The notes under the pieces: model-generated
Told to the model about the DNA's origin: nothing
The model's database searches: none
What the model saw: the letters and a program-made list of their open reading frames with translations, nothing else
Made by a program: the position numbers and the translations under genes
In this document: positions 3,042 to 51,925 of the stretch, piece by piece
Layout: each line of letters begins with the position of its first letter
Numbering within the stretch: position 1 is the stretch's first letter
Assembly (NCBI GenBank): GCA_041660885.1
Contig: JBAZVM010000002.1
Span: 81,538-145,537, forward strand
Reading direction: 5' to 3'
Source of the DNA: Patescibacteria group bacterium
GTDB taxonomy: Bacteria > Patescibacteriota > Patescibacteriia > UBA9570 > JAHJKD01
Length of the DNA stretch: 64,000 nucleotides

Positions 3042-3109
3042 ATTTTTTTTAAAAACAAAAAGACTAATTTATGATTATTATTATATAACTTTCCAACTAA
3101 TTATACAAA

Positions 3110-5338: not shown

Positions 5339-5344
5339 AAAATA

Positions 5345-20922: not shown

Positions 20923-21498
20923 ATGAATTTTTTTATTAAACATTATAAATTTTTTATCGCTTTTTTTGTATTAGTGATAATTAACGTCGCTATATATATT
21001 GTCGGTCCTTCAAATATTATAGATACCATAGGGGTATCAAACGGTTATTTGGTGGCTTTTATCGCCGCCGCTACAGCCGGGTTCTCTATGTTTACGGTTT
21101 CCGTGTTTTATTCCGCCTATGTCGCTTTAGTTTCAGCCGGCTTAAACATTTGGCTGCTAGCCTTATGCGCGGGAGTGGGCTTGGCCATAAGTGATACTAT
21201 TTTTTTCTTTACTCTATTGCACGGCCGCAATCTAATGCCCATGAGATGGCGTGAGCAAGCGGATAAATTCGCCAAATGGATGGAAAAAAGAGCAAAGATC
21301 GCCGTACCCTTTATAATTTTTTTCTATTGCATATTAATTCCCCTTTCCACGGATTTTCTTATGCTTGTTATGGCCATAGCAAAACAAAAAATCAGGTTAG
21401 TTTTTCCTTGCCTTATATTAGGTAATATCGTTTTCGCTTTTGAGGTTGCCTACCTTGCTCAACGAGGATACCAATTATTTTGGTGGAATTTTTCTTAA
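20923..21498 (+). CDS. Hypothetical polytopic membrane protein
   Basis: 191 aa, 5-6 predicted TM helices, no motif recognised. Confidence 0.5.
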   Translation: MNFFIKHYKFFIAFFVLVIINVAIYIVGPSNIIDTIGVSNGYLVAFIAAATAGFSMFTVSVFYSAYVALVSAGLNIWLLALCAGVGLAISDTIFFFTLLHGRNLMPMRWREQADKFAKWMEKRAKIAVPFIIFFYCILIPLSTDFLMLVMAIAKQKIRLVFPCLILGNIVFAFEVAYLAQRGYQLFWWNFS

Positions 21499-26579: not shown

Positions 26580-27318
26580 AATAAGATTTTTTATCTAATT
26601 CTTCCGTGTATTTTTTTAAAAGCTTTTTCAAGCATTCATTATTTTTTAAAGCTGACCCAATATAAACTACGTTCTTAAACCCCCCATAGCGCCGGATTTC
26701 GCTATATAACGCTAAGTCTTTCTTAGTGGTTATGGCCACTATATTCATCAAACCGGCGGCTAAATCTCTTTTTAGCGTTAAAGCGCCGGCTTGCGCGAAA
26801 TTGGCAATTATATAATCTGAAGCATAAAGATCTACAGCTTTATAATCCCCTTTGCCGGCTTGGCTGGATAAATTGTTAAAGTCGTTAAACTCTAGGGCTT
26901 TCGCCATGCCGGCCATGAATCCCCCTCCCAGGGAATTGCCCAAGGGCAATTTAAAAAACTTTTTCCCTTTCACGCGTGTATAAGAGGTTCCCGTTCCGAT
27001 AGAAACCAGCAAAAAATCTTTGGGCGCTTTTTTTCCTTTGGAAATAAAAAGTTTCTTTAAGCCGAAAAGCTGAAGTTTTATTTCTTCTTGTATTTTGTCT
27101 TCCAACAAAACGGGGCGCTTATTATTGATTTTTAAGAATAATAATTCTTTGGGAAAAGTTCCTATGCCCACCACTTGCGCTTCGCTGATTTTTTTTTGCT
27201 TTAGAAGAGATGCTATTTTAGAAAGGGTGTAGTTGGCGCTGGATATGAATTTCACTTTCTTGTCTTCCAAGAAAGCAATTTTTATCAAGCTGCTGCCTAA
27301 ATCTATTCCGGCATTCAT
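26518..27318 (-). CDS. ASKHA-fold kinase, probable type II (Fumble/eukaryotic-type) pantothenate kinase
   Basis: 266 aa. GIDLGSSLIKIAF phosphate-1, SIGTGTS and GGGF motifs as in the Fumble family. Its start ATG shares one nt with the tkt stop (TAATG). Its stop is TAG. Confidence 0.55.
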   Translation of the reverse strand: MNAGIDLGSSLIKIAFLEDKKVKFISSANYTLSKIASLLKQKKISEAQVVGIGTFPKELLFLKINNKRPVLLEDKIQEEIKLQLFGLKKLFISKGKKAPKDFLLVSIGTGTSYTRVKGKKFFKLPLGNSLGGGFMAGMAKALEFNDFNNLSSQAGKGDYKAVDLYASDYIIANFAQAGALTLKRDLAAGLMNIVAITTKKDLALYSEIRRYGGFKNVVYIGSALKNNECLKKLLKKYTEELDKKSYFISYSEYGTALGALLWTGNQ

Positions 27319-29507
27319 TATTTAGCCGCGTTTAATATTTTTTCCTTAATGTCTTTCGGGCTTAATTTGGCCATGTCGTATACTTCTTTTGGCGGGCCGG
27401 ATTTTAAGTAAGTAGAAACGCCCAAAGATTTTTTAGTATAATCTTTTCCCAATATAAACGGATATAAGAATCCTTTCCAGCCGTTATGAATGGCAATGAC
27501 TTTTTCGCGTTCGTCGTCTGCCAATATGCTTTGCGCTTTTTGCGGGTCTTTCTCTCTTAATTCTTCAAATAATTCCGGTGAAGTCACTGCAATTATTTTA
27601 ATATCATAATCTTTTTGTAAATCCGGCAGCACTTCCAGGGTGTTCGCCATGGTTTGACCGCCGCAAATGGCCAGCACGATTTTATCTTTACCGGTGTTCT
27701 CGTAATTTTTGAATACATAAGCGCCATTGGTGGCCTCTATAGCCGGAGGAATGCCTTTGGTTCTATCAAATATCGGCGTATCGGGACGGGCTACGGATAG
27801 CGCGATTGGTTCGCCTTTTTCCAAGGCGTAGAATAGCATCTCGATGGTTTCGTTGGCATCCATGGGCTTATAAACTTTAATACCCGGGTACGCGTTAAAC
27901 AGAGACATCCAATAAAGGCCATGATGAGTTGGGCCGTCTTCTCCGGTTTCCAAGCCATCGTGCGCGGCCAGCATTATAAAGAAGCCTTTGGTTTTGGGGT
28001 TCACATGATTACCTATCAGCGTCATGCGCACGGAGTTGGACATCATGGAAGTGAACACGCCATAGGAGCTGAAGACAGTGCTGGCTTGAAAGCCTCCGGG
28101 TAAAATATCTTGCGTCATGGCGCAGGAAAGCATGGCCATGTTCTGTTCCGCAATGCCGAAGCGGATGCCGCGGCCGTATTTATTCTCGCGATTCACAATA
28201 CCGTAAACTTGCTCGGCTTTCCAAGTGAGAATGGATTTTGATAAATCTCCGGTACCGGCGTAGAAAAAAGCGCTTTGGCTCATCAACCATTTAAAAAACT
28301 CTTGGGTGGCAGTACGCGTGGCTACTGGTTTGGTTCCGGTAAAAACTAATTCCTTAGGCAACTCCTTCGGCCTTTTTATTTGAGTGGGATTTTTTAAAGG
28401 CCTGCCTGCTAAAGCCGTTTCTATTTGCTTTATCAGTTCTTGTTCCGGTTTAATATTATTTTTGGCTAAATTTAAACGTTCGCCTAAATATCCGGTTAAT
28501 TCGGTCGTTAATTGTTCCAAAACGACTTGAAGATCGGGCATGACATTCTTTTTTTCTCCGGGGATGTTAAAGCCCAACTTTTTCATTATTTCCACATATT
28601 CTTCGTGCTTGGCAGGTTTGCCATGGGAATCGCAGGTGTTCTCCGTGGAACCGTAACATTTTCCTTTGCAGGCATGGGATAAAATAACCGTGGGGCTACC
28701 ATTGTCAAAACCTTGTTTGGCTTTTTTAAAAGCATACGTCAATTCCAAAATATTATGGCCATCCACTTCTATTACATTCCATCCCAATCCTAACCAGTGG
28801 TTAAGATATGGAGAAGAAATCACCTGATCCGTGTCGCCATCAATGCCAAAATGATTTCTATCAAGAAGAACCGTTAAATTGGATAAACCCAAAGAATGGG
28901 AAATATTTCTAGCTTCATAGCTCATGCCTTCTTCGGATTCCGCGTCTCCCATTAACACATAAGTACGCATATCATTAAGCCCGCAAGAGCGGTGCAAATT
29001 GGCTAGCCCAGCCGCGCCGCAAACACCATGCCCGGATGAACCGGTAGATAAATCAGCCAGAGGATGATAAGACTCCACATGGCCTTGGGGGCCGTCGATA
29101 TGGCGGAAGCGCAATAAATCTTCGGCCATGACCGCGGATAGTTCTTTCGCATTAAAATTTTCCCCGTTTTTTTTCAAAGACTCGTATACCAAGGATAACA
29201 TTCCATATAATAATGGGGTGCAATGCCCGGCAGACCAAACCATTCTATCCCTACCTGTGTTTTTCGGATCTAAAAAATCAAAAGCCATTTCACCGCTTAA
29301 AAGCAAGGAAAGTAAAGCCTCTACCTTGGATGACGACCCGCCCGGATGTCCGGATTGTGAAGCTTCGATGGCCCCGAATATCAGGCCGCGGCAAATCCTG
29401 GCTAATTCCTGCGCTTTATTCACATCTAGGCCATCAATGTTTTTTAGAGCTTGGCCTCGCAGATCTAAATAGTTTCCTCCTTTTAATTTATCGTCTTTCT
29501 TCGCCAT
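27318..29507 (-). CDS. tkt: Transketolase
   Basis: 729 aa. TPP-binding SGHPGGSSS, GDAESEEG-like, and a transketolase central/pyrimidine-binding region. Confidence 0.9.
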   Translation of the reverse strand: MAKKDDKLKGGNYLDLRGQALKNIDGLDVNKAQELARICRGLIFGAIEASQSGHPGGSSSKVEALLSLLLSGEMAFDFLDPKNTGRDRMVWSAGHCTPLLYGMLSLVYESLKKNGENFNAKELSAVMAEDLLRFRHIDGPQGHVESYHPLADLSTGSSGHGVCGAAGLANLHRSCGLNDMRTYVLMGDAESEEGMSYEARNISHSLGLSNLTVLLDRNHFGIDGDTDQVISSPYLNHWLGLGWNVIEVDGHNILELTYAFKKAKQGFDNGSPTVILSHACKGKCYGSTENTCDSHGKPAKHEEYVEIMKKLGFNIPGEKKNVMPDLQVVLEQLTTELTGYLGERLNLAKNNIKPEQELIKQIETALAGRPLKNPTQIKRPKELPKELVFTGTKPVATRTATQEFFKWLMSQSAFFYAGTGDLSKSILTWKAEQVYGIVNRENKYGRGIRFGIAEQNMAMLSCAMTQDILPGGFQASTVFSSYGVFTSMMSNSVRMTLIGNHVNPKTKGFFIMLAAHDGLETGEDGPTHHGLYWMSLFNAYPGIKVYKPMDANETIEMLFYALEKGEPIALSVARPDTPIFDRTKGIPPAIEATNGAYVFKNYENTGKDKIVLAICGGQTMANTLEVLPDLQKDYDIKIIAVTSPELFEELREKDPQKAQSILADDEREKVIAIHNGWKGFLYPFILGKDYTKKSLGVSTYLKSGPPKEVYDMAKLSPKDIKEKILNAAK

Positions 29508-38767: not shown

Positions 38768-40591
38768 TTAGCTCAAAATTCCCTTATCTTTCTTCTTTTG
38801 TTCGTTTTCATCCAATATCATCTTGCGAATTCTAATATTTTTCGGGGTAATTTCCACCAATTCATCGTCTCCGATGTATTCTAACGCGTCTTCCAAATCC
38901 ATAATTTTCGGGGTTTTAAAATGTTCGTCCGAACCTTCACCTTTAGAGCGCATATTGGAAAGCTGTTTGGCTTTACAAACATTCACGCGCAAGTCTCCTC
39001 CGCGGGAATGCTGGCCTACCACTTGGCCTTTGTATACCTCGTGAGCCTGCCCCATAAACAAAACGCCGCGACCTTGCACATTAACCAAACCGTATAAATT
39101 CGTGGTGCCGGTTGTATGAACCACTAAAGAACCTTGTTCTCTTTCTTTCCAATCCCCCGGATCTTTATGGTAGCCCTCAAATATAGTATTCATTATTCCC
39201 AAACCTTTGGTATCGGTTAAAAATTCGTTTCTATAGCCAAATAATCCGCGAGTGGGAATCACAAATTGCATGTTCACGGTATTGCCTTCGGTTTTCATTT
39301 CCCGCATTTCACCTTTGCGGCTGCCCAGTTTTTGGATAATGGCGCCGGCGTAAATTTCCGGAGCTTCTATAAATACTTCGTCGAAAGGCACCATTTTTTG
39401 GCCGTCGATTTCTTTCACGATAACTTGCGGGCGGGAAACTTGAAATTCATAGCCTTCTCTTCTTAATCTTTCGAAGAATATGGCCAAGTGCAATTCACCG
39501 CGACCTGAAACCACCCACTTGCCTTGAGAGTTAGCCAAAGGTTCTATTCTCATGGCCACATCGTTTTCCAATTCTTTATAGATTCTTTCTCTTAATTGAC
39601 GGGAAGTAGAAAATTTTCCTTCTTTTCCGGAAAACGGGGAATCGTTCACGCAAAAAACCACTTTAACAGTCGGCTCTTCAATGGCTACGGGCGGCAAAGC
39701 CATAGGCTTTTCCGGGTCTGCCACCGTGTCCCCGATATTTATTTCCGGCACTCCGGCTACGGCTACGATATCTCCGGCTTCGGCGGATTTAGCTTCTATT
39801 CTTTCCAAGCCGAAAAAAGACATTAAAGATGTTAAGCGGAATTTTTTTTGCTTGCCTTCACGGGTAATGTGCATTACTTCTTGGCCAGCAGTTATGCGGC
39901 CATTATAGATTCTTCCCGTGGCTACACGGCCTTTAAAATTATCGGAAAACAGCGTAGTAATTAACATTTGCAAAGGTTTTGAACTGTCGCCGGTGGGCGC
40001 GGGTACATATTTTTTTATTGCCGCGAATATCGGAGAAATATCTTTCATTTTTTCTATTTCCGGTTCATTGCCGGCCAAGCCTTTTTTCGCGGCCGCGTAC
40101 ACCACGGGGAAATTAGTGGTTTCTTCGTCCGCGCCGAGCTCTATGAATAAATCAAACACTCTGTTTAAAGTTTCGCGAATACGCGCTTCTTTTTTATCGA
40201 TTTTATTTACAACGACAATAACCTTCAGTTTCATGGCTAAAGCCTTTTTTAAAACAAATCTGGTTTGTGGCATAGGGCCTTCTTTGGCATCCACCAATAG
40301 CAAACAACCATCGGCCATAGTGAGGACGCGTTCCACTTCTCCGCCGAAATCCGCGTGCCCCGGAGTATCAATGATGTTTATTTTCAAATCTTCCCAATTT
40401 ACCGAAGCGTTCTTGGAAAATATGGTAATGCCTCTTTCTTTTTCAATCTCGTTGCTGTCCATTATGCAAATTTGATCTTTTACATCTTTATTCAACTTGG
40501 TTTGCGATTGACGCAACAAAGCATCCACCAGCGTGGTTTTGCCGTGGTCAACGTGAGCGATAATCGCGACATTTCTAATATTATTCATCAT
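38768..40591 (-). CDS. typA: Translational GTPase TypA/BipA
   Basis: 607 aa. AHVDHGKTT G1, DTPGHADF G3, NKID G4, EF-G-like domains. Confidence 0.95.
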   Translation of the reverse strand: MMNNIRNVAIIAHVDHGKTTLVDALLRQSQTKLNKDVKDQICIMDSNEIEKERGITIFSKNASVNWEDLKINIIDTPGHADFGGEVERVLTMADGCLLLVDAKEGPMPQTRFVLKKALAMKLKVIVVVNKIDKKEARIRETLNRVFDLFIELGADEETTNFPVVYAAAKKGLAGNEPEIEKMKDISPIFAAIKKYVPAPTGDSSKPLQMLITTLFSDNFKGRVATGRIYNGRITAGQEVMHITREGKQKKFRLTSLMSFFGLERIEAKSAEAGDIVAVAGVPEINIGDTVADPEKPMALPPVAIEEPTVKVVFCVNDSPFSGKEGKFSTSRQLRERIYKELENDVAMRIEPLANSQGKWVVSGRGELHLAIFFERLRREGYEFQVSRPQVIVKEIDGQKMVPFDEVFIEAPEIYAGAIIQKLGSRKGEMREMKTEGNTVNMQFVIPTRGLFGYRNEFLTDTKGLGIMNTIFEGYHKDPGDWKEREQGSLVVHTTGTTNLYGLVNVQGRGVLFMGQAHEVYKGQVVGQHSRGGDLRVNVCKAKQLSNMRSKGEGSDEHFKTPKIMDLEDALEYIGDDELVEITPKNIRIRKMILDENEQKKKDKGILS

Positions 40592-40623
40592 AATCCAAAA
40601 AGGATACAGGAAAATTATAAAAG

Positions 40624-40640
40624 AGTCAATATTATTGACT
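40624..40640. promoter_or_regulatory. Perfect 8-1-8 palindrome AGTCAATA-T-TATTGACT in the typA / small-peptide divergent intergenic region; it contains TTGACT and is a candidate operator/-35
   Basis: Read directly. Lies 47 nt upstream of the small-peptide ATG. Confidence 0.35.
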
Positions 40641-40686
40641 TTATTTTGATATTAATATTCAATTATATTACAACACAGGAGCACAC

Positions 40687-40776
40687 ATGAACTTCATCGT
40701 CGCGGTTGCTATCGCTCTTTTTTTTACGGCCATCCCGGCCTTTCTTCTCTGGGTCATAACCCGGAGAGAACTGTGA
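40687..40776 (+). CDS. 29-aa single-TM hydrophobic peptide (MNFIVAVAIALFFTAIPAFLLWVITRREL), type-I-toxin-like or leader-like small membrane peptide
   Basis: AGGAG SD 5 nt upstream of the ATG. A continuous hydrophobic helix ending in RRE. Below the ORF-track size cutoff. Followed by a GGGCAGT..ACTGCCC stem-loop. Confidence 0.35.
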   Translation: MNFIVAVAIALFFTAIPAFLLWVITRREL

Positions 40777-40894
40777 GGAGGACGGGCAGTAGGAGCGCAC
40801 AACGCCCCCACTGCCCAAGATAGAGATACTACATTTTTCAATATCAAGTTTGTTAATAGTTCTTTTTATGACGCGACAAGGCGTGGAGGAAACC

Positions 40895-41059
40895 ATGGCT
40901 CATGTTGTATTCTATGTGATACTGGCCAGCGGAATTTTCTGTCTGGTCGGTGCCGAGAACTACGGTACCGCAGGCGCTATTGTTGGCGGCCTGTTTGGCA
41001 TCATCAGTGGCGGCATGATCGGATTCATTGGCGTAAACTCGAAACAAGAAAATTCCTGA
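40895..41059 (+). CDS. Small glycine-zipper membrane protein (GlsB/YeaQ/YmgE-like or bacteriocin-like), 54 aa from the SD-supported start
   Basis: GGAGG SD 5 nt upstream of ATG 40895 (MAHVVFYVILASGIFCLVGAENYGTAGAIVGGLFGIISGGMIGFIGV...). GxxxG/AxxxG zipper. The track's 40850 TTG start is less likely. Confidence 0.55.
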   Translation: MAHVVFYVILASGIFCLVGAENYGTAGAIVGGLFGIISGGMIGFIGVNSKQENS

Positions 41060-41076
41060 GAGGTTGAGGAAAAAAA

Positions 41077-41295
41077 ATGGTAACTGCATTCAACACCGTG
41101 TTCTGCACACTTCTTTTCGGAGGCGCCGGCGCGGTCATTGGTGCCGAACTTGGCGCCACCAGCGGTGACGCCATGATCGGAAGGATCATCGGCGTCGTTC
41201 TTGGTGCCGGTCTCGGACTCGCCCTCGCCCTGCTCGGCGAGATCCTGGACAAGCCCAACAAGGAAAAGCCCGGCCCTGTTCACAAGAACAGGTAA
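41077..41295 (+). CDS. Small glycine-zipper membrane protein paralog (72 aa), codons strongly GC3-biased
   Basis: GAGG SD. LFGGAGAVIGAELGATSGDAMIGRIIGVVLGAGLGLALALLG. Nearly every codon ends in G/C, unlike the rest of the window. Confidence 0.6.
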   Translation: MVTAFNTVFCTLLFGGAGAVIGAELGATSGDAMIGRIIGVVLGAGLGLALALLGEILDKPNKEKPGPVHKNR

Positions 41296-41317
41296 CCGGG
41301 CTTACGTAAAATTTTTA
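41266..41317 (+). terminator. Nested hairpin (AAGCCCGG...CCGGGCTT enclosing CCTGTTC-acaa-GAACAGG) at the end of the islet, followed by an A/T-rich tract; putative terminator
   Basis: Read directly. The U-tract is not immediately adjacent, so the confidence is moderate. Confidence 0.4.
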
Positions 41318-41336
41318 TCAATTCTATATAGAAGTT

Positions 41337-41825
41337 TTAAAACGGGGTCCAGCTAAAGACTTCCTTGCCTTTGCCGTTAATGATGACTATAACGTTCTTG
41401 TTTTTTATTTGTAAGCGATAATCTCGGCGAATATATCTAAACATCGTTCTTTTTTGTAAATGAAATTTATTATCATCAACGTTAAAGCTATAAATTTTAA
41501 GATAAATAGAGGAACCTCGTTTGGAAGCCACTACTATCTCTTCCGTGTTTTTGGTGGCGTTTAAATTACCCGTGGCCATTTTTCTCCAATGCAGTTTGGG
41601 AGATAATCTTTTTGCTGTTAATAAATTGCCGTTCGTATCATAAGCGCGGATGGAAGAGCCGGCGCGCTTTTTTACGGCAAAGACATAAAGTTCATTTTTA
41701 ATTTCAGCTAATCTGGGAATTACGCCGCCCACTGGGAAAGCTTGGAAAGTGGCTAATAAAATATTATCTTCCGTATAAAGGTTAACTATGCCTCTGCCCC
41801 TGTTGGTACCCGTGCTGTAATCCAC
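41337..41825 (-). CDS. Hypothetical beta-rich protein. It may be the frameshifted C-terminal domain of the upstream giant adhesin rather than an independent gene.
   Basis: The track starts at a GTG with no SD. The same frame is open upstream to 41915, encoding ...TVTEEDDDDDDSDSQEVDYSTG... (an acidic linker), and overlaps the adhesin stop in the -1 frame. Confidence 0.45.
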   Translation of the reverse strand: MDYSTGTNRGRGIVNLYTEDNILLATFQAFPVGGVIPRLAEIKNELYVFAVKKRAGSSIRAYDTNGNLLTAKRLSPKLHWRKMATGNLNATKNTEEIVVASKRGSSIYLKIYSFNVDDNKFHLQKRTMFRYIRRDYRLQIKNKNVIVIINGKGKEVFSWTPF

Positions 41826-41899
41826 TTCTTGGCTGTCGCTATCATCGTCGTCATCATCCTCTTCAGTAACGGCGACTACTATGGTATTGCTTTCGGCTG

Positions 41900-44800
41900 T
41901 TAGGTTTCGGAATCTGTGGCAATAAAACTAATTTCTTCCGAACCGTTATAAGAAGCGTTGCTGGTCATGGATACTTGGCCATCGGTAACCGTAATAATAA
42001 CGTTCATATTGCCGGCCGTGGAATAAGTTAAAGATGTATCTTGCGCATCTGTGAAGTAATCATCAAGATCAAAGACATTGCTGGCTGTATCACCGGCCAC
42101 GAAGGAGACATTAGGCAGAGAGCCGGCAAAGGTTGGCGCGGTATTAGTTTCAGTAACCGTAACATTAACAACTTGCGTAACATTATTATCTCCGTCAAAG
42201 GCATTAAAAGTTGTTGTGTAAACACCAGATTGAGAGTAAGTAGGAGTCCAATTAAAAGTGCCGGTATTATTTCCATTGTCCGTAAACAAAGTAGAAATAT
42301 CCACGCCCGCGGCGCTATAGTCGTTTGATGCATCTAAAGCCGTGAGCGTTAAAGTGCTTGTATCTTGATCATTGGCGCCAACAGAGAAAGACAGGTTGGA
42401 ACCGGCCCCGATAGTTTTCTCCGTAATGGCTACAAAAGAAGGAGCGTCGTTATCCGCTGTTACGTTTACAGTCATGGTATCCGGGGCGGAATCGTCTTTA
42501 GTGTCATTCACTATTAAACGATATTCGCAAGAATAATTTGATTCTTTATCGGCAAAGTCCACATCCGGAGTGGCAGAAGTATTATTGGATAAACTGCAAG
42601 CGTCCGAAGCGTCCAGAGTTTCCACCCAAGCGTAAGTTAACGGATCGCTATCTAAATCAGATGAACCCGTACCATCCAATGTCGTTGACGCATCTGATTC
42701 GTTTTTATTTTGATCCGCTCCGGCATCGGCAACAGGCAAATTATTAGGATCGTTATCCGTAATAGTGGCCGTATGTTCTATGGTGGCTCCTTGGGTAGCA
42801 TTAGTGGGAGAACCCATGGTTGCTATTACGGTTTCATTGCTTTCATCTAAAGTATCATCGGTAACAGTAATGGTAATATTGGCCGTTGTATTCCCGGCAG
42901 TGATACTAATAGGTGACGCGGTAATGGAGTAATCAGTTCCGGAACCCGTGGCCGTGCCGGCTATAGTATAAGGAATAGAAACATTTTTTCCCGAAGCTGT
43001 TGAAAGTTCGGCCGTAATGGTCATGGTGCCGACATTTTCCGCGCCTGATTGCAAAGCGGAAGTAAATGTCACGGTTGGCGCGCTATCATTATCCGTAATA
43101 GTACCGGTATGTTCTATAGTGGCTCCTTTAATGCCGTTGGTGGGATCACCCATGGTGACTATCACGGTTTCATCATCTTCGTCTAATGTATCGTTGGTTA
43201 TGGTAACGGTAATGTCGGCTGTGGTATTGCCCGCGGTAATGGTAATGGGGGATGCGGTAATGGAATAATCGGTTGCTCCACCTGTGGCCGTGCCCGTAAC
43301 AATGTAAGGAACTGTAATATCTAAAGCCGGAGCATAAGATGCTTCCGCGGTAATGGTGTAGCTAGCTTCGTTTTCCGCTTTGGTGGCTGTACTGGTTGTC
43401 CAGTTTACTGTTGGTCCGTCAAAATCCCAGTTATCATTATTTCCGGCGTTGTATGAAGTTACACCGGCAACAACTTCCGTTCCAAAACTGGCATCCGAAT
43501 CCATTACGTCCACGTAAGTGACGGCTTGCGTGCCAGAGAAATTAAGATTCCAATGATTAGTGTCTGATGTACTGCGCAACACTACTTCATGGTCAGCTAT
43601 GCCGGTTAAAGTAAGGAGGCCGGTAATGTTTTGCGTGACGGCTTGCGTGAATTTAATGTTTTTATCTTGGGTAACGCATCTGAATCCGGAAAAAGTATTA
43701 GTTCCTGATATTATTGATGTTTTGGTATTATCGTCAAATATTACTTTTCCGGCAGAAGCATTAAAGGTTCCGGTATTGGCAAAGTTCTCACCGACGGTTA
43801 AATCGAAATTACCTGCTGTCACGTTAAATGTTCCAGAAGCAATATTCAGGTCGTTGTTAATATCTAGCGCGGCGCCTAACTGATAAAGATCAGTGGCTCC
43901 ATCCGCGCTGGTTATTGTTAAATTATTATATGTGTTAGATAAAGTAGTTAGAGTGTAGGTGTCTTCGGCGTCGTCATCATCACCGGTAAACTCTACCGTG
44001 CCGCTATTGGTATCCATGGTTATGGTGGTAGCTTCGTTTCCTCTTAGTCTTAATGTGCCGTCGTTGGTGAAAGTTGTACTTACTGTTAAGCCGTTATTGT
44101 TTAAGGAAAGAGTGCCGGATGAAATAGTAACGTTATTAATGGTTTCCGTGTTCGCTAATGTAAAGACGCTGGAGCCGGCAATAGTTAAATTGGAATAGGT
44201 GTAATCTTTAATGGTATAAGGGCTGGAGCCATCATAGGTAACAGTAGAGCCAGCATCTAATTGCGGGTAGCTGACTGAATCAGGGGTAATGGTTTCTCCG
44301 CCTTGGAGTTGAAGATTACCGCCTGTTTCCACTACTATTTTTTCCGTGGCACTGCCTTGAACGGTAAGCGCGTTATTATTTAAATCAAAAGTTCCTTCTT
44401 GAATAGTAAGATCTTGGTTGGAAGCGTCCATAACCAAAGCCGAAGCGAGATTAACGGCTCCGCCGGATTTATTGACCGTGATATCGGCGTTGTATAATCC
44501 CGTGGCACCGGTAAGGTCAAACGACTGCGTGTTGCCCCCTTTAAAATTTAACGGTGAAGTGCCGCCATCATACCCAGAACTTACAGTAACATCGCCCTGC
44601 GCTTCTAAGGTGCCAACAGAAATATAGCCTTCTGTTAATGATAGCAAGCCTGTTGTAACTATCGTATCACCTGACGATATGGTATAGGTCCATCCGTATG
44701 TAGAATTAAATTGCAAATCATGAAATGTTTCTGTCGTAGCGACATTTAAAGTAGCGGAACCAATAGTAAATATTACCGACCCGTTTCCTTCTACAAATTC

Positions 44801-47140
44801 ACCGCCTGATTTTGTAAAATTAGCCTGTCTTATAGTTAAAGTGGAAGATGGGGTAAAAATTCCAGAGTCTTGAGTATAACCGCTCGATACAAGAGTTAAA
44901 TTATAACCATCATAATTAATGGGTACATTATTGGCATCTCCAAAACCTGCCGCAATATTCAAGCCATAAAATGTTGTATCAGCGTTTAAATTTACATCAT
45001 CATTGGCATCATCAGGATCGTCAAATTTTATAATGGGAGCAATTCCACCCGCTACGATATCGCACGCTTGTGCTTCGGTATCATCGGCAAAATTTAAAGT
45101 GCCATCGCCGCCGTCAAAACCGGCTGATATGGTAATAGTTCCTTGTGCGTCAATCGTGCCAGTGCTTATTTGACCTTCTGTTAAAGTTAAATCATGAGAA
45201 ACAATCATTTTATCGCCCGTCATAATGGTCATGGCCCAACCAGGAACCTGATCAATCTCCACATCATAAAATGTTTCTTCCGTGGTAGCGCCCGTCATAT
45301 CAAAGCGATTGGTGCCGTTGGTAAAGACCACTGTATTTGTTCCCTCTTCAAAAGTTCCGCCGGATTTCACAAAATATGCTCCGTTGCCATCTATGGTTAA
45401 TATAGTAGGTGCGGTAAAAATACCAGAAGCTTGAGTGTAATCACCTACTCCTATAGTCAAATTGTGCGCATTATAAGTAATGGGTACATTTAAATTCGGC
45501 GCGTCAGGGTCAAAATCTGATGTGATGTTTAAACCATAAAAAGTAGCGTCGCCGCTTAAAGAGACAACATCATTAGCATCGTCCGGATCATCAAATTTAA
45601 TAATCGGGGTAATTTTACCGGAAGGAACAGTATATGTTTGTACTTCCGTATCGTCCGCAAAGTTTATTACTCCATCACCGCCATCAAAGTCAGCGGATTG
45701 GGTTATAGTACCCTGTACATCAATAGTGCCCGTGCTTAATGTACCGTCTGTTAATGTTAATGCGTTTGTTACAACTATTGTATCACCGGAAGAAACAGTA
45801 CACGCCCAACCGTTTATCGCGTCAATTTCCATATCATAAAATGTTTCCGTTGTAGCCACATCAATAGTATTTGAACCATCCCTGAAAATTACTTTGTTAG
45901 TGCCCTCGGTGAAAAATCCGCCGCTTTTAGTAAAATAGGCCGTATTACCAATAATAATTAAAGTACTCGGTGCTGTAAAAATTCCCGAGGCTTGAATATA
46001 ATCCCCAACACCAATACTTAGAATATGGCCGGCATAATCAAAATTTACATTGTTGGCATCGCCAAAACCGGCCGCAATTTCCAAACCATACATTGTGGCA
46101 TCAGCGCCTAAAATTATTTGATCATTAGCATCGTCAGGATCATCTAATTTAACTTTCATCCCATAGGCGTTGTTAATAGTATATGTTTGATTAAGAGCAT
46201 CGTTGCCAAAGCTAATGGTTGCATTACCGCCATCGAAATTTGCTCCTTGCGATATAGTTCCTTGCAAATCAATGGTTCCAGTTTGCAGGTAGCCTTCTGT
46301 TAAAGTTAACGTGTCGGTAACTGTAATGGTATCACCAGAAGAAATAATCAGCTGCCAACCAGCATTCATGCTTACTTCCAAATTATGCACCGTTTCCGTA
46401 CTATTAACATTAAAGGTTGCTCCTCCTGTAGAAAATATTATTGTACTCGTTCCTTCGGTAAATGTTCCGCCGGAACCAACAGTAAAATCCGCGTATGTTA
46501 AAGTAATGGTTTCATCAGTCGCGTCAAAAGTGCCTGAATCTATAGCTAGATCAGATGTGCCAATGCTAAGAGTTGTTTGAGCGGAAACAGTACCATCATA
46601 TCCGGTGTTTATATCTATACCACCAATGGCCGAGCCAAAAGCAGCATTAATTACCGCGTTATTATCTGAAGTTCCGTCAAAAACAGCTATATCCGTAGAG
46701 GTGGGGCAAGAATTTCCCACCCAGTTATCACAATTGCTCCAATTCGTATCGACACCACCTCCACCATCCCAAGTATGACTATCGGCTAGTGCTTCTTTAG
46801 TAAACCAAGGGGTCCTGGAAAAAGCTACAGCTGAAAGATCAACTACATATATCAAAGAAATTATGCCAAGACCCAAGGCTATGGTATAAGCGCGAAAACC
46901 TCTTTTTAATTTAAGATGCTCGTGATAAGAATGTTTATATGTGCCATTCTTACGCTGTTTGGCTTCAAAGTTAAAGCTATGGTAAGGACTTAAGAATAAT
47001 AAGTAAAAAGCATGAACTACGGAGTACACGCAAATTAAAGGTAATAACAACAGTTTATAAAAGAACTTAGAAACAGGAGTTCTTTTCTTTTTATTGCTTT
47101 TCTTTATGATATCAGAAATTTTTTTCACAAAGAAATACAT
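41900..47140 (-). CDS. Giant surface adhesin (1746 aa): N-terminal TM anchor, parallel beta-helix-like repeats, two Calx-beta domains, cadherin/Ig-like C-terminal domains
   Basis: N-terminal hydrophobic helices. Long T/G/S/D/N-rich beta-helix repeats. Calx-beta signatures ITVTITNDTLDEDDETVIVTMGDPTNG and ITITVTDDTLDESNETVIATMGSPTNA. PLTYAW and DAPSF cadherin-like motifs. Confidence 0.85.
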   Translation of the reverse strand: MYFFVKKISDIIKKSNKKKRTPVSKFFYKLLLLPLICVYSVVHAFYLLFLSPYHSFNFEAKQRKNGTYKHSYHEHLKLKRGFRAYTIALGLGIISLIYVVDLSAVAFSRTPWFTKEALADSHTWDGGGGVDTNWSNCDNWVGNSCPTSTDIAVFDGTSDNNAVINAAFGSAIGGIDINTGYDGTVSAQTTLSIGTSDLAIDSGTFDATDETITLTYADFTVGSGGTFTEGTSTIIFSTGGATFNVNSTETVHNLEVSMNAGWQLIISSGDTITVTDTLTLTEGYLQTGTIDLQGTISQGANFDGGNATISFGNDALNQTYTINNAYGMKVKLDDPDDANDQIILGADATMYGLEIAAGFGDANNVNFDYAGHILSIGVGDYIQASGIFTAPSTLIIIGNTAYFTKSGGFFTEGTNKVIFRDGSNTIDVATTETFYDMEIDAINGWACTVSSGDTIVVTNALTLTDGTLSTGTIDVQGTITQSADFDGGDGVINFADDTEVQTYTVPSGKITPIIKFDDPDDANDVVSLSGDATFYGLNITSDFDPDAPNLNVPITYNAHNLTIGVGDYTQASGIFTAPTILTIDGNGAYFVKSGGTFEEGTNTVVFTNGTNRFDMTGATTEETFYDVEIDQVPGWAMTIMTGDKMIVSHDLTLTEGQISTGTIDAQGTITISAGFDGGDGTLNFADDTEAQACDIVAGGIAPIIKFDDPDDANDDVNLNADTTFYGLNIAAGFGDANNVPINYDGYNLTLVSSGYTQDSGIFTPSSTLTIRQANFTKSGGEFVEGNGSVIFTIGSATLNVATTETFHDLQFNSTYGWTYTISSGDTIVTTGLLSLTEGYISVGTLEAQGDVTVSSGYDGGTSPLNFKGGNTQSFDLTGATGLYNADITVNKSGGAVNLASALVMDASNQDLTIQEGTFDLNNNALTVQGSATEKIVVETGGNLQLQGGETITPDSVSYPQLDAGSTVTYDGSSPYTIKDYTYSNLTIAGSSVFTLANTETINNVTISSGTLSLNNNGLTVSTTFTNDGTLRLRGNEATTITMDTNSGTVEFTGDDDDAEDTYTLTTLSNTYNNLTITSADGATDLYQLGAALDINNDLNIASGTFNVTAGNFDLTVGENFANTGTFNASAGKVIFDDNTKTSIISGTNTFSGFRCVTQDKNIKFTQAVTQNITGLLTLTGIADHEVVLRSTSDTNHWNLNFSGTQAVTYVDVMDSDASFGTEVVAGVTSYNAGNNDNWDFDGPTVNWTTSTATKAENEASYTITAEASYAPALDITVPYIVTGTATGGATDYSITASPITITAGNTTADITVTITNDTLDEDDETVIVTMGDPTNGIKGATIEHTGTITDNDSAPTVTFTSALQSGAENVGTMTITAELSTASGKNVSIPYTIAGTATGSGTDYSITASPISITAGNTTANITITVTDDTLDESNETVIATMGSPTNATQGATIEHTATITDNDPNNLPVADAGADQNKNESDASTTLDGTGSSDLDSDPLTYAWVETLDASDACSLSNNTSATPDVDFADKESNYSCEYRLIVNDTKDDSAPDTMTVNVTADNDAPSFVAITEKTIGAGSNLSFSVGANDQDTSTLTLTALDASNDYSAAGVDISTLFTDNGNNTGTFNWTPTYSQSGVYTTTFNAFDGDNNVTQVVNVTVTETNTAPTFAGSLPNVSFVAGDTASNVFDLDDYFTDAQDTSLTYSTAGNMNVIITVTDGQVSMTSNASYNGSEEISFIATDSET

Positions 47141-47227
47141 GAATTTATTAATTTTTATTTTTATGAAGAAGTACGCAAAATTATTAAATATATTATAGCA
47201 TAAAAAAAAACTTTTGTCTAAAAAAAT

Positions 47228-48658
47228 TTATAACGAAGCAAGAGGCTTCTTAGCCGGGCTTGTTTTTGCGCGGCCGTCTTTGGTAAAGCGGCTGCCATGG
47301 CACGGACAATCCCATGTCTTGGCTTTATTGTTCCAATGCACAATGCAACCTAAGTGCGAACAAACCGGGGACAATTTTTTAATATCCCCTTTTTCATCTT
47401 TATAAATGGCCACCTTCTGTTTATCTATTGTTCCCACGGCTCCGGTGTCATTAGGAATTTTTTCTATGTCTAATTCTTTTAAATTTATTCTTCCGGTATA
47501 CAATGATTTTAAAGCATTTGCTCCTTGGCGAATTATTCGGCAAGCGCTTTTTAAGCGTTTCGGTTTGAATAAAGCCGCGTCTTTATTTTTCCGGCCTAAA
47601 ATAATATCTGAATTAATCATGGCGCTTAACATGCCCAATGTTAAACCGTCTCCCCCGTGGCCGGCGGATAAAAGCTGGTGCTTATTATCTATAGACTCTC
47701 CAATATACGGCAATCCATCAACGCTATTCACCACCTGCCCGCTCCATTGGTGCGTAATGATATAATTATTTTTTCCCACCAGCTCGATAAGATGGTTTTC
47801 TAATTTTTTATAGCGTTCATCGGCCAAAACGGATAAATCGGAAGAATTATCTTGCCCGCCTAATATTATTTTCTTTCCATCCACGCGAAAATAATTATAA
47901 GGTTCATAAGTATCTATAAATATTCCTTCGGGAAGATCATGTTTTTGCAAATCCGCGGCCAACACATAAGTGACATCCGTGCTTAAAGGATACTTTTTTC
48001 CTTTATGGCTGTTCTTGGCGAGCACGGCATACTCCGCTTGGACATTCGCTTTTTCCGTTTCTATCATCACCGGGTTTTCGTCCGTAATGCCCAGCACTTT
48101 GGTGTTTTCAAAAAATCGTACGCCCATCTTATCTAAAACTTTAATCAATCCCTGCATAAATTTTACCGAATTGATTTTCGCGTTTCCTTCAAACTTGGCG
48201 CAGACATTATAAGCATTACCCAAGGGATAATGCCCGATATTTTCTTTGGGCAATTTTTTTACGCTCTGCTCGCTATCCGCGCACACAAATAGCGGACAGC
48301 GCGCAAAATCGCAATCAATCTTCTCTTCTTTAATAATTCTCTCCAAAACATCGATCGCTTCAATGGCCGATTGCTTTAATAGCGGAGAAAAATCGCCATC
48401 TAAAATATAACTTAAAAAACCGGTGGAATAAGCTGTTGTGGTATTCTTTATTAGTATGTCTTGCTCGAGTACCACAACTTTTTTTCCTGCTTTGGCCAAT
48501 AAGTATGCAGTAGTTAAACCGGTAATACCCGAACCGATAACAGCCACGTCTGTCTTAATATCTTTCTCTAAAGTTGGGTATATGGCCTCGATTTTATATC
48601 CAGACAGCCAAAAGCTGTCTTTGATTATTTCTTCGCTCATTTTATTTGGTAAATTCAA
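47228..48658 (-). CDS. FAD-dependent oxidoreductase (DAO family) fused to a C-terminal Rieske [2Fe-2S] domain
   Basis: 476 aa. VIGSGITGLTTAYLLA dinucleotide fold. CSHLGC...CPCHGS Rieske ligands. Confidence 0.8.
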   Translation of the reverse strand: MNLPNKMSEEIIKDSFWLSGYKIEAIYPTLEKDIKTDVAVIGSGITGLTTAYLLAKAGKKVVVLEQDILIKNTTTAYSTGFLSYILDGDFSPLLKQSAIEAIDVLERIIKEEKIDCDFARCPLFVCADSEQSVKKLPKENIGHYPLGNAYNVCAKFEGNAKINSVKFMQGLIKVLDKMGVRFFENTKVLGITDENPVMIETEKANVQAEYAVLAKNSHKGKKYPLSTDVTYVLAADLQKHDLPEGIFIDTYEPYNYFRVDGKKIILGGQDNSSDLSVLADERYKKLENHLIELVGKNNYIITHQWSGQVVNSVDGLPYIGESIDNKHQLLSAGHGGDGLTLGMLSAMINSDIILGRKNKDAALFKPKRLKSACRIIRQGANALKSLYTGRINLKELDIEKIPNDTGAVGTIDKQKVAIYKDEKGDIKKLSPVCSHLGCIVHWNNKAKTWDCPCHGSRFTKDGRAKTSPAKKPLASL

Positions 48659-51443
48659 TGCTGCCGATAACTTTATTATAAAATTTTTGCAATTGCTGGG
48701 GCGCGTCAGAAGGCATCATACCATTTGGGTGGGAAAGTATGAACAATAAATCATTTTTTTCTCCCATCACAGTTTCGCCGGCGCCGATCAGCGCATCTTC
48801 CTGAAATTTATTCCATTGCTTTTGCGTGGCTACGGTTACGGTGAATAATTCCACCTGATTATTTTTACAGCTGGTGCTGGCGTATCCGGTTTCTGTGGTT
48901 TTAAAACAATAAACATACTGCGCTTTGCCCCAATACGGTTCATCTAGAGTATTTATTTTGGTATTTACGGCATACTCGCCAAGATTCAAAGAAAATCCGT
49001 AATCCTCATTTAATATTTTATTATCGCTTACGGTCTCTTGGCTAGTATTAGAATTATTATTTGTATTTACTGCGACAGGAATATTGGTATTAATATTAGC
49101 ATTAGCGATTACGGTATCTTCCACAATAACCGTTGGCAAATTATTCAGGGAATCTTTAATTCGGCCGTAGACATTATAAAAATACAAGAAAAAAGCGCTC
49201 AATAAAATCAAGCTCAATAAAATTCCCAATATCAATAAAATTATTTTCTTTCTAAATAAAATTATAGGGAGAACAAAAATTATTACTGCTAAAGCTAAAA
49301 GTGAAATAGAAATCCAATCAAAACCGTTATTTACTTTTTTAGCAGGATAAGCGCCTACCACCATGTTCATTATACCGTTTAATCCTTCTTCATTGGCACC
49401 GACGGTTTTTAAAACCGGTTTTACTTCTTGGCCATCCACTATCAAGCCGGCTGTTTTATCGGATAGAGAAACTGTCGTTGTTAAAACGCTGCCATCTTTA
49501 ATTGGCACATTTTTATATTCGTATATTTCAAATTGGCTGCCGGTTTCCTGCGGGTAAGAAGTATAAATGTTCGCTTGCCCCATGGCCGTGCCCGCCATGA
49601 TTACTTCATAATTGCCATCTTTGGGCAAAATAAAGTAAGAGACAAAATCATTCGCGTCGCGATAGCGCACTTCTTGTAAAAAGCCGTCGGCCGTGGCAAT
49701 GGTATTGCCGTCTTTATCCAGTCCTATTTGCTGGCCCGTGTTTTTGTCGGTGACAGTAACGGCCACGGGGCAATCCACGATAATGCGCACTTTCTGAGAC
49801 ATATCCTGCCGCATCATGTTTTGAATCAAATACTTTCTTTGCACGGAAAATATTTCTTTGTTGGTGCGTTCCAGAGTGGCGGAAATTTTATTTTTTGTTT
49901 CCGTGGGCAGAGCTTTAAAGAACTTATCTTCTTCGTCGCTTAATTTAAATTCAAATTGTCCTTTTTTGGACATTTCGGAAAGAAGGTAATCCTGGCCGCA
50001 CATGGGATAATTCGGATTGCGGTCGCATCGAGCCGCGTTGGCTTGGCCTCCGCTCATTTGCTCCCATTGCTCTGTAGTGTAAATATCATGGCGATTATAA
50101 ATCCACGGATCAAACACCATTCCCGTATCCTGCCAAAGCGTGCCCGTGGGATACAGCACGGCCGCTTGGTGCCCGAAAAAATGTGATAAAGCGAAAAGTT
50201 CCACGGGGCCGAAATCAAAATAGCTCATCATCTTTCTTTCCGTGGCATCGTTGCTTAAACGCAAAGAATGAAAAACAGTCAGCACCTTTTCTTGAAAAGA
50301 TCCGCAGACATAAGGCTCGTACCGTTCCAACGCTCTTTGCCAGTAGGCCTCTTTTTCCGGATCCCAGGTGATCCACTTCATTAACGTGGCATTGCCCGTG
50401 CGCATATTGGTGACGCAATTGCCGCAATAGCTTCCTTCGGGCACGCGCGGGTTTAATTCCACCAAAGCTTCGTATTTATTAATAATGTATTGTTTTGCTT
50501 CTTCATAGCTTACGTCTCTAGAGCAATCAGATGGGCAATTTTTAATATTTTCTCCCACTTCAGATTCGCATTTCCAATTCCCGCACTGCAAGTTATACCC
50601 CGGCTTTAAATTAATCGTGGCTACGGGATTGCCGTGCGCGTGAGTCGCTTGCAAAGTCAGCTGGCCGCTTTTAAAATTCGGTGGCTGTTCAGCCGAAGCG
50701 TAAGTAAGCTTCACCTCTCCATTGGCATCGGTTGCCGCGGCCGAGGCCGTGATAGATCCTTCTTTGCTATCCTCCACTGTTGACCGGTCGTCGTTCAGAA
50801 CGAACCCGACGCTTTCATTGGCAGCGGGCGATCCGTTTTTTAAAACTAGCACTTTAAAATCCACGCTAGTTGCGCCATCGGCCACAACTTCCACCTCTTT
50901 CGGGCTGATGGTTACTTGCCAGCTATCTTCTTGCGAAATATTGGTATTTATATTTTGGCTTTCAATAGCAGAGTTTACATTGGTATTTTGCGCGGATGCG
51001 GCCAAATCATTACAGCAAGTAGAAAAATTAACATCGCATTGGTCGCGTTCGGCTTGTGGTGGTTTGCTTGCCTGACAATCGCGTACGCACTGGCAATAAG
51101 CCACGGCGCCATCCACCCAAACGGGATCGGTATACTGCGTCCAATAAGCGCGCAGATCTCCTTCCAACGGGCATTTATCCGGAGTGTCTAAAGCTTCATA
51201 ACGCACGATATCCCAGCATCCGCCGCGGCCGGTGCAAGCTATGTAATCATTATATTTAGTGTTATAAGCATCCACGCATGCGGCATCGGCGTCTCCGCAG
51301 GAATAAGAATCAGATGCCAAGTCAGTGGGAACAGCCACACCAATATCGCTGCAACTCCATTGATAAGCATAGCTTACGCCAGTAAAACAAAATAATAAAA
51401 AAATAGCCAAGAATAAATTAGCCGCAATTTTTTTTGTTTGCAT
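48642..51443 (-). CDS. Large secreted Cys-rich protein with transglutaminase-like core and Ig-like domain, C-terminal TM helices
   Basis: 933 aa. Signal peptide, many Cys in the N-terminal 150 aa. TGase-like C/H/D arrangement (YVCGSFQ...HFFGHQAAVLYPTGTLWQDTGMVFDPW). Two hydrophobic helices near the C-terminus. Confidence 0.65.
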   Translation of the reverse strand: MQTKKIAANLFLAIFLLFCFTGVSYAYQWSCSDIGVAVPTDLASDSYSCGDADAACVDAYNTKYNDYIACTGRGGCWDIVRYEALDTPDKCPLEGDLRAYWTQYTDPVWVDGAVAYCQCVRDCQASKPPQAERDQCDVNFSTCCNDLAASAQNTNVNSAIESQNINTNISQEDSWQVTISPKEVEVVADGATSVDFKVLVLKNGSPAANESVGFVLNDDRSTVEDSKEGSITASAAATDANGEVKLTYASAEQPPNFKSGQLTLQATHAHGNPVATINLKPGYNLQCGNWKCESEVGENIKNCPSDCSRDVSYEEAKQYIINKYEALVELNPRVPEGSYCGNCVTNMRTGNATLMKWITWDPEKEAYWQRALERYEPYVCGSFQEKVLTVFHSLRLSNDATERKMMSYFDFGPVELFALSHFFGHQAAVLYPTGTLWQDTGMVFDPWIYNRHDIYTTEQWEQMSGGQANAARCDRNPNYPMCGQDYLLSEMSKKGQFEFKLSDEEDKFFKALPTETKNKISATLERTNKEIFSVQRKYLIQNMMRQDMSQKVRIIVDCPVAVTVTDKNTGQQIGLDKDGNTIATADGFLQEVRYRDANDFVSYFILPKDGNYEVIMAGTAMGQANIYTSYPQETGSQFEIYEYKNVPIKDGSVLTTTVSLSDKTAGLIVDGQEVKPVLKTVGANEEGLNGIMNMVVGAYPAKKVNNGFDWISISLLALAVIIFVLPIILFRKKIILLILGILLSLILLSAFFLYFYNVYGRIKDSLNNLPTVIVEDTVIANANINTNIPVAVNTNNNSNTSQETVSDNKILNEDYGFSLNLGEYAVNTKINTLDEPYWGKAQYVYCFKTTETGYASTSCKNNQVELFTVTVATQKQWNKFQEDALIGAGETVMGEKNDLLFILSHPNGMMPSDAPQQLQKFYNKVIGSIEFTK

Positions 51444-51448
51444 ATTTT

Positions 51449-51925
51449 TTATACGAAAGTTTTATTAATCCAACTGCCGATATAATAGGTGGCAATTATT
51501 ACGACAACCGTAATCAATAAATGCTCGCCAATCACCATCCAAGCTTTTGCATGATCTTGCTTGGCGATATAAGCGCTGAAACCGACGATCAAAGAAAGCC
51601 CCCAAATAACGCAAATGATCACGGCCAAATTTAAAGGAAATATTAAAACCGGAACCAAAAAAGTTAAAGCAAAAATAAATTTCGCGCCAAAAGTGGCTAA
51701 AGTAGATTCCCAAATTTCTCTTACGGAATGTTTGTTTTCCGCTTCTTCTGAAACATGTACGCCCAAAGCATCAGAAAGAGCGTCAGTAATGGCGATAATC
51801 ATGATACCGCCGATAACCACGGCTTTAGAACCAGAGCTGGCATCCAAACCAATTATCAAACCAAGCGTGGTGATTATGCCTGAAGTCAGCCCGAAGCTGA
51901 AACCTTTTTTTAAAGATACTTTCAT
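51449..51925 (-). CDS. Small polytopic membrane protein, possibly VIT/CCC1-like (DUF125-type)
   Basis: 158 aa, 4-5 TM helices, Gly-rich helices. The family assignment is tentative. Confidence 0.4.
   Translation of the reverse strand: MKVSLKKGFSFGLTSGIITTLGLIIGLDASSGSKAVVIGGIMIIAITDALSDALGVHVSEEAENKHSVREIWESTLATFGAKFIFALTFLVPVLIFPLNLAVIICVIWGLSLIVGFSAYIAKQDHAKAWMVIGEHLLITVVVIIATYYIGSWINKTFV

Follow-up and report, generated by a model that had tools for sequence, protein, structure and literature searches.

The stretch of DNA analysed here, 64,000 nucleotides with a GC content of 40.7% (hereafter the window), comes from a metagenome-assembled genome (MAG) of an uncultured member of the Patescibacteria (candidate phyla radiation, CPR). 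Between typA and a 162-aa open reading frame (ORF), both on the minus strand, it carries a short islet (40624-41317) of three plus-strand ORFs. Our judgement, held with moderate confidence, is that this islet is a small self-contained three-gene operon of orphan membrane mini-proteins, laterally acquired from a donor that had a higher GC content and used Shine-Dalgarno (SD) motifs. Each ORF is preceded by an SD motif, the islet contains stable hairpins and has an atypical composition, it is absent from relatives, and its products lack homologues. In what follows, host genes are those of the Patescibacteria genome that carries the islet.

Codon usage and initiation signals

ORF1 (40687-40776, plus strand) encodes a 29-aa peptide, MNFIVAVAIALFFTAIPAFLLWVITRREL. 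ORF2 (40895-41059, plus strand) encodes a 54-aa two-helix glycine-zipper mini-protein and ORF3 (41077-41295, plus strand; NCBI WC752_01445, MFA6027568.1) a 72-aa hairpin of two glycine-zipper helices whose C-terminal tail is charged. The gap between ORF2 and ORF3 is 17 nt, a typical operon spacing. Both are called as genes by NCBI and by JGI, and ORF1 is below the length limit of the gene-call records searched. In NCBI, ORF2 is given as a 63-aa form starting at 40868 (WC752_01440), a start at which the SD motif is absent.

An initial annotation made from the sequence had described the islet as 55-60% GC against about 40% in its flanks. This value holds for ORF3 only (59.8%); the whole islet has 49.4% GC, as against 40.7% for the window, and ORF1 and ORF2 have 50% each. 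The difference is clearest at third codon positions. In host genes (n = 45), the third-position GC content (GC3) is 0.405 ± 0.044 and does not exceed 0.48, whereas GC3 reaches 0.70 in ORF3, 0.60 in ORF1 and 0.55 in ORF2. The statement that almost every codon of ORF3 ends in G or C was thus exaggerated, the proportion being 70%, but this proportion does lie above the host range. Moreover, the GC contents of the three codon positions of ORF3 (GC1/GC2/GC3 = 0.64/0.45/0.70) follow the gene-like pattern GC1 > GC2 < GC3, whereas the antisense frame whose third positions coincide with those of ORF3 shows the reversed, non-gene-like order GC1 < GC2.

The host prefers GGC and GCC, so that Gly/Ala-rich genes are expected to be somewhat richer in GC3. 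Therefore an amino-acid-corrected GC3 was computed, the expected value being calculated, amino acid by amino acid, from the synonymous codons that the host uses. For ORF3, the expected GC3 was 0.44 and the observed value 0.70 (z = 4.8 (4.79)). This corrected excess is larger than that of all 15,735 host windows of 71 codons, the highest of which has a z of 4.16. The natural comparator within the host is atpE, which also encodes a 72-aa Gly/Ala-rich membrane protein; its GC3 is 0.47 and it uses TTA or TTG for 6 of its 9 Leu codons. ORF3 therefore differs in composition from a host gene of the same kind.

Leucine codons give a second contrast. All 17 Leu codons of the islet, including the four of ORF1, belong to the CTN family, as compared with 33% of 1,726 host Leu codons, and the longest run of CTN codons in host genes is 6.

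The third trait is the presence of ribosome-binding motifs, which were confirmed for all three ORFs as first described. AGGAG (40677-40681, plus strand) precedes the ATG of ORF1 with a 5-nt spacer, GGAGG (40885-40889, plus strand) that of ORF2, also with a 5-nt spacer, and GAGG (41066-41069, plus strand) that of ORF3 with a 7-nt spacer. The motif in the SD region of ORF3, GTTGAGGAAA, is similar to GTGGAGGAAA ahead of ORF2. An SD core, defined as GGAG, GAGG or AGGA, was found between positions -16 and -4 in 3/3 islet ORFs as compared with 2/49 host genes. The host rate is no higher than the 4.9% background of any 13-nt window, and at the host rate the chance of finding an SD core in all three ORFs is about 7e-5. 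The 20 nt upstream of host starts are 81% A+T and often contain a TATAAT-like element abutting the start codon; examples of host starts without an SD motif are found upstream of 13560-14327 (minus strand), 20923-21498 (plus strand) and 56639-58189 (minus strand). In the closest relative found (L163, described below), none of the 10 called genes has an SD core. These upstream sequences suggest that the lineage initiates translation in a leaderless or SD-independent manner. In a published survey, the 16S rRNAs of roughly half of the Parcubacteria were reported to have no anti-SD motif (PMC9297842).

GC3, the Leu codon family and the initiation signals are partly independent traits by which the islet differs from its genome. 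All three suggest a donor that used SD motifs and had a GC content of roughly 55-60%.

Another spot in the window attracted attention by its base composition. The second most GC-rich 200-bp segment (61821-62020, 61.5%) was considered and set aside, since its high GC content stems from the region coding for an RG-rich C-terminal tail, that of a DEAD-box helicase (61784-63040, minus strand). This tail overlaps the probably over-extended Ala-rich N-terminus of the ORF at 60553-61911.

Related loci and homology searches

The region next to typA was compared with that of related genomes. Scans anchored on typA, performed on the GTDB species representatives and on JGI metagenomes, returned 160 loci, in which full-length typA was at most 72% identical to that of the window, one truncated contig reaching 81%. 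None of these 160 loci contained a gene resembling ORF1, ORF2, ORF3 or the 162-aa ORF. A compositional scan near typA likewise detected no comparable glycine-zipper mini-ORFs in the Patescibacteria loci.

A search with the typA protein led to a closer relative, L163, a 21-kb Logan contig whose typA is 84% identical. Nucleotide homology between this contig and the window covers atpB, an AtpZ-like gene and typA (38768-40591, minus strand), the upstream neighbour of the islet, and extends into the typA promoter; it ends at 40631, which is the centre of a palindrome described below. Beyond the typA promoter, the relative carries a different divergent gene of 234 aa followed by VIT1, and the islet is absent. 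Thus, the islet is not conserved next to typA, either in the 160 related loci or in the closest relative.

Homology ends at 40631 and the VIT1 homologue of the window lies at 51449-51925; therefore 40632-51448 can be taken as lineage-specific. This segment of about 10.8 kb contains the islet, the 162-aa ORF (ORF162; 41337-41825, minus strand), the gene of a 1746-aa Calx-beta/PKD adhesin (41900-47140, minus strand) downstream of which ORF162 is located, a DAO/Rieske oxidoreductase gene and the gene of a 933-aa Big_1 protein. The counterpart in the relative (8699-10000) comprises only about 0.8 kb and one unrelated gene, that of 234 aa. Judged from these alignments, 40632-51448 is a surface-protein-rich variable region specific to the lineage. 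Within it, only the islet is compositionally odd, the rest being host-like. The acquisition, which the initial annotation suggested to be recent, is not datable; the single close relative shares about 74% nucleotide identity with the window.

Two further features of the surface-protein genes were observed. The adhesin gene contains internal 227-bp repeats (42749-42975 and 43085-43311) that are 76% identical. Surface proteins with FG-GAP, BNR, Big_1 or Calx-beta domains are also abundant elsewhere in the window (2466-7780, 18575-20833, 48642-51443 and 58246-60528).

Homologues of the three proteins were searched at several levels. When ORF3 was compared by phmmer (full HMMER) with 1.84 billion cluster representatives, it retrieved itself and two long repetitive proteins; the latter were rejected as homologues because their scores are sums of low-complexity matches. 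In word-index searches of 5.8 billion clusters, ORF2 and ORF3 each retrieved themselves alone. When ORF1-3 were compared by phmmer with all ORFs of 20 aa or more from the 164 loci retrieved, matches were confined to two contigs of the same organism (L001 and L002). Searches of phage and plasmid collections by tblastn and blastn yielded chance matches only, and scans of viral contigs gave no relative of ORF2 or ORF3, ORF1 being too short for such a scan. No islet ORF scored above threshold in Pfam, NCBIfam, PHROGs or PADLOC, and nothing significant was found in the PDB by sequence. The other frames and strands of the islet contained no Pfam relic and matched no family at E ≤ 0.1.

For ORF1, weak leads were obtained to phrog_8349 (E = 0.002) and, at E = 0.4-0.9, to the small membrane proteins that Bam35-type tectiviruses encode. 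Both matches are non-significant and were judged to be an effect of transmembrane-segment composition. At such short lengths, only relatives of roughly more than 50% identity are detectable; "orphan" therefore means here that a close relative is absent from the databases searched.

Promoters, hairpins and competing explanations

The start of the islet is marked by a perfect 17-bp palindrome, AGTCAATATTATTGACT (40624-40640), made of two back-to-back TTGACT boxes. A promoter scan placed the typA promoter at 40601-40629 on the minus strand (-35 TTGACT, 17-nt spacer, -10 TATCCT). When the regions upstream of typA in the window and in the closest relative were aligned, a conserved promoter TATTGAC-N17/18-TAT(C/T)CT was seen, and the arrangement TATTGAC...TTTTCCTGTAT(C/T)CTTT is kept in the relative. 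Since this promoter is conserved in the alignment, one arm of the palindrome can be assigned to the typA -35 box. From its mirror-image TTGACT facing the islet, we infer that the second arm may be the -35 box of a divergent promoter; alternatively, both arms may form a symmetric operator. In the relative, the typA -35 region is tandemly duplicated at 9940-9975 (GGGTTTTTATTGAC x2), and it is this same box that makes up one palindrome arm in the window.

Besides the palindrome, the two other inverted repeats of the initial annotation were located. A GC-rich GGGCAGT/ACTGCCC stem-loop with arms GGGCAGTAGGAGCG/CGCCCCCACTGCCC follows ORF1 (40784-40816, plus strand). Its folding z-score in a 131-nt context is -2.8 for the plus and -3.4 for the minus strand; with no U-tract immediately after it, the stem-loop does not qualify as a canonical terminator. 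A nested GC-rich hairpin (41266-41303) overlaps the last 10 codons of ORF3. With -26 kcal/mol and a z of -5.5 on both strands, it is the most stable 44-nt hairpin of the entire 64 kb, and 5 of the 20 most stable such hairpins of the window lie in the islet. The nested hairpin is probably an intrinsic terminator for both directions. Since UUUUCCUUGUU directly follows it on the minus strand, the convergent ORF162/adhesin operon may be served by it as well as ORF3 is, or better. A weak terminator-like element, a 5-bp stem GCGGT/ATCGC followed by T8, was also noticed inside ORF1 (40702-40725); it may attenuate transcription or be incidental.

From these elements, the following history and mode of expression can be proposed. 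The operon would have entered the Patescibacteria chromosome by lateral transfer from a higher-GC, SD-using bacterium or phage. It lies directly past the typA promoter, where the lineage-specific surface-protein segment of about 10.8 kb borders on typA. Transcription would start from the promoter that mirrors the typA -35 box in the 17-bp palindrome and would end at the strong hairpin at 41266-41303.

Several points weigh against this proposal. Neither a donor nor a homologue was found in the cluster, phage, plasmid and viral searches. No integrase, transposase, tRNA, flanking direct repeats or target-site duplication was found at the site. Taken singly, ORF1 and ORF2 are only about 2 standard deviations (sd) above the host GC3 expectation (z = 2.0 each). 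The null distribution of host windows is over-dispersed (sd 1.40), and ORF3, though the most extreme value, exceeds its maximum by a limited margin; a segment of the host transketolase gene also reaches a GC3 of 0.70. The SD motifs may be non-working if the host has no anti-SD, which leaves expression uncertain, and the hairpin that encodes the 3' tail of ORF3 may belong to the neighbouring host operon. As for possible partners, a type I secretion system or ABC-C39 exporter was absent among the 38 other window proteins, a part of those called, that were scanned with Pfam, and neither an endolysin nor other phage genes were found in the window by the Pfam scan of 38 proteins.

The transketolase segment mentioned above corresponds to codons ~442-512 of the gene at 27318-29507 (minus strand); with a local GC3 of 0.70 and a corrected z of 4.16, it is the strongest GC3 outlier among host genes. 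A repeated or mobile nature of the islet was also considered and rejected: the window contains no further copies of it, it has no flanking direct repeats and an attC-like consensus is lacking.

Altogether, the description of the islet as a foreign cassette is supported in part, by its atypical composition and by its absence from relatives, and SD usage adds support to it. It is not supported as regards the donor and the mobility signature; in particular, the high-GC partner or host organism that had been suggested as a source was not found in the databases searched.

The same facts can be read in other ways. The DNA might be foreign but inert, that is, a relic of transfer in which the ORFs and SD motifs persist only because the insertion is young, and which is not productively expressed in a host that translates independently of SD motifs. 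We regard this as unlikely, although it deserves serious consideration. Host genes show no SD enrichment and their upstream regions are 81% A+T, part of the Parcubacteria lack the anti-SD motif (PMC9297842), the starts of the islet ORFs sit in RNA that is GC-richer and dense in hairpins, and neither homologues nor functional partners were found. On the other hand, the islet has kept three intact ORFs with operon-like spacing and a terminator, and the mirrored -35 box is suitably placed upstream of it. Moreover, the 3' end of the 16S rRNA of this MAG lies outside the window, so that loss of the anti-SD in this organism is a supposition.

A fairly improbable alternative is that the three ORFs are native, fast-evolving, lineage-specific genes for small membrane proteins, whose codon usage would result from local mutation or selection, for example on mRNA structure. 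Local GC3 is over-dispersed in the host, as described above (corrected z sd 1.40, one segment at 0.70), the preference for GGC and GCC makes Gly/Ala-rich genes naturally GC-richer, the surrounding variable segment of 10.8 kb has a host-like composition, and short proteins quickly lose detectable homology. However, the 17/17 CTN codons for Leu and the 3/3 SD motifs do not depend on how rich a gene is in Gly and Ala, and none of 49 host genes matches them. In addition, the natural comparator atpE is host-like, and the closest relative has nothing similar.

The density of hairpins raises the question of a structured non-coding RNA locus or cis-regulatory leader in which the ORFs would be incidental. 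The islet (661 nt) folds as a whole with a z of -6.5 (20 shuffles), its sub-segments giving values of -1.6 to -3.6; it holds the 5 of 20 most stable hairpins mentioned above, and GC-rich islands in AT-rich genomes are often RNA genes. However, similar z-scores were obtained for the two strands, and the mixed composition and two discrete hairpins inflate them. No Rfam family was matched at gathering thresholds, and a permissive scan gave only chance-level matches (E > 0.7). Three well-spaced SD-ATG pairs, the period-3 GC pattern of ORF3 and the two-helix hydrophobic patterns are also unlikely to arise by chance, and we consider an RNA locus very improbable.

A chimera of assembly or binning that would have joined DNA of another organism is scarcely credible: contigs of the same organism from ENA (L164 and L002) do break at 40826 and 41014 and the Logan contig starts at 40535, but this Logan contig (L001, run SRR18595301) is 100% identical to the window over 40535-46975 and spans both islet junctions, in agreement with the 153.8-kb MAG contig, and the ENA contigs run into host sequence on each side without divergence. 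The two ENA contigs retrieved leave 40827-41013 uncovered, and their breaks could reflect a drop in coverage, the hairpins or strain heterogeneity.

Lateral acquisition of a small operon is thus the reading that we prefer. If it is true, the islet provides a small and clear case of foreign DNA within a reduced genome of the Patescibacteria, where it stands out by its codon usage and by initiation signals that the recipient lineage does not use. SD motifs would then be a usable marker of recent gene flow into lineages without SD-dependent initiation. Its proteins would enlarge the vast and poorly understood pool of small membrane proteins, and the practical significance is modest.

The mini-proteins and their likeness to known systems

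ORF1 comprises a lone hydrophobic helix and an RREL tail. ORF2 and ORF3 each display two hydrophobic segments, a short polar loop starting with GAE and a polar or charged C-terminal tail. The initial annotation had described both as rich in GxxxG-type helices and, indeed, extended in-register glycine zippers are seen in each of them (G27/31/35/39/43 in ORF2; G18/22/26/30 and G35/39/43/47 in ORF3). AlphaFold2, run for ORF3 without an alignment, predicted a helix-turn-helix hairpin (H2-29 and H32-63, pLDDT 81). A fold search with this protein (Foldseek) returned only a non-significant resemblance to small two-helix membrane subunits.

The two proteins align weakly with each other (E = 5e-4, single comparison). 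Upstream of the start codon, their genes have GT(G/T)GAGGAAA in common, and GGTGCCGA occurs in both where GAE is encoded. These shared sequences suggest that ORF2 and ORF3 are probably paralogous and arose by a tandem duplication that has since diverged.

All three products would insert into the cytoplasmic membrane, where ORF2 and ORF3 would be expected to pack via their GxxxG zippers into homo- or hetero-oligomers. Such oligomers would be typical of small pore, holin-like and bacteriocin-like proteins or of small accessory membrane subunits. A membrane-permeabilising, toxin/immunity or holin role is speculative and would be based on analogy with the systems considered below; the addiction-module and envelope-stress roles offered in the initial annotation are likewise hypothetical.

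The glycine-zipper 2TM proteins of Pfam (PF05433 Rick_17kDa_Anti, SlyB/PCP-type; PF13441, PF13488 and PF13436) resemble the islet proteins in their short GxxxG helical hairpin. Glycine-zipper models of Pfam and NCBIfam are indeed the best matches of ORF3, but they remain below threshold: 12.7 bits for the Gly-zipper 2TM model PF05433, whose cut-off is 24.2, then 10.1, 10.1 and 7.4 bits for PF13436, PF13488 and PF13441, the cut-offs of the four models ranging from 24.2 to 28.9. The best E-value of ORF3 for glycine-zipper Pfam families is 0.12 and ORF2 has no match, so that the two proteins do not belong to these families by HMM comparison. The glycine-zipper 2TM families are outer-membrane lipoproteins of diderm bacteria. 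In contrast to the SlyB/PCP-type lipoproteins, the islet proteins have no signal peptide, charged n-region or lipobox by inspection; Phe stands before each of their Cys residues (IFC, VFC), a context that does not make a lipobox. A resemblance to the GlsB/YeaQ/YmgE proteins had also been put forward. It was not upheld, Transgly_assoc (PF04226) being unmatched by any of the three ORFs at E ≤ 10.

The Cdz system of Caulobacter comprises two adjacent genes for glycine-zipper bacteriocins of 84-86 aa, CdzC and CdzD, and a small membrane immunity protein (PMC5380434). The islet shares with CdzC/CdzD, and with class IIb two-peptide bacteriocins, the presence of two adjacent genes for small proteins that abound in Gly and small hydrophobic residues and carry extended GxxxG zippers, near the gene of a small transmembrane (TM) protein. 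By analogy, Cdz would be the closest architectural parallel. There are differences, however. The dedicated exporter that characterises Cdz was absent among the window proteins scanned with Pfam. Neither an RTX-like nor a double-glycine leader is recognisable in ORF2 or ORF3. ORF1 is the sole candidate for a cognate small membrane immunity protein, but it has 1 TM helix in 29 aa, whereas CdzI has 3 TM helices; it shows no homology. The islet proteins have no sequence similarity to those of the bacteriocin systems.

A more specific scenario can be imagined, which we consider quite doubtful. The cassette might have been captured from the bacterial host of this episymbiont or from a phage of that host. 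The glycine-zipper hairpins and the 1-TM peptide might then form an exporter-independent membrane-permeabilising or toxin/immunity system at the symbiont-host interface, beside giant adhesins. Under such a scenario, intact SD motifs and higher-GC codons in a lineage that has abandoned SD would be a trace of the origin of the cassette.

Class II holins have two TM helices and a charged C-terminal tail. ORF3, with two hydrophobic helices in about 70 aa and a highly charged C-terminal tail, is of this type, and its AlphaFold2 hairpin fits. It differs from class II holins by the absence of a dual-start motif. Among holin HMMs, the only match of the islet was that of ORF2 to Phage_holin_3_1 at E = 1, and the PHROG lysis families were unmatched.

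ORF1 recalls the Fst/Ldr/TisB-type toxins: it is about 30 aa long, has one hydrophobic helix, and its C-terminus is short and charged. The initial annotation had compared it with toxins of the Hok/Fst/TisB type; no type I toxin family of Pfam or NCBIfam was matched at E ≤ 10. ORF1 further differs from type I toxins in that it is not repeated elsewhere in the window. On the minus strand, no promoter was predicted by the scan within ORF1 or immediately beyond its end.

Finally, the islet can be compared with small ORFan islets, which are likewise short, homologue-free, of atypical composition, absent from the nearest relative and located in a variable region. Classical ORFans are AT-richer than their host, whereas this islet is GC-richer; it also differs in carrying SD motifs within a non-SD lineage and in having no mobility genes. 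Thus, the islet is an orphan example of a familiar kind, a small atypical islet of mini membrane proteins.

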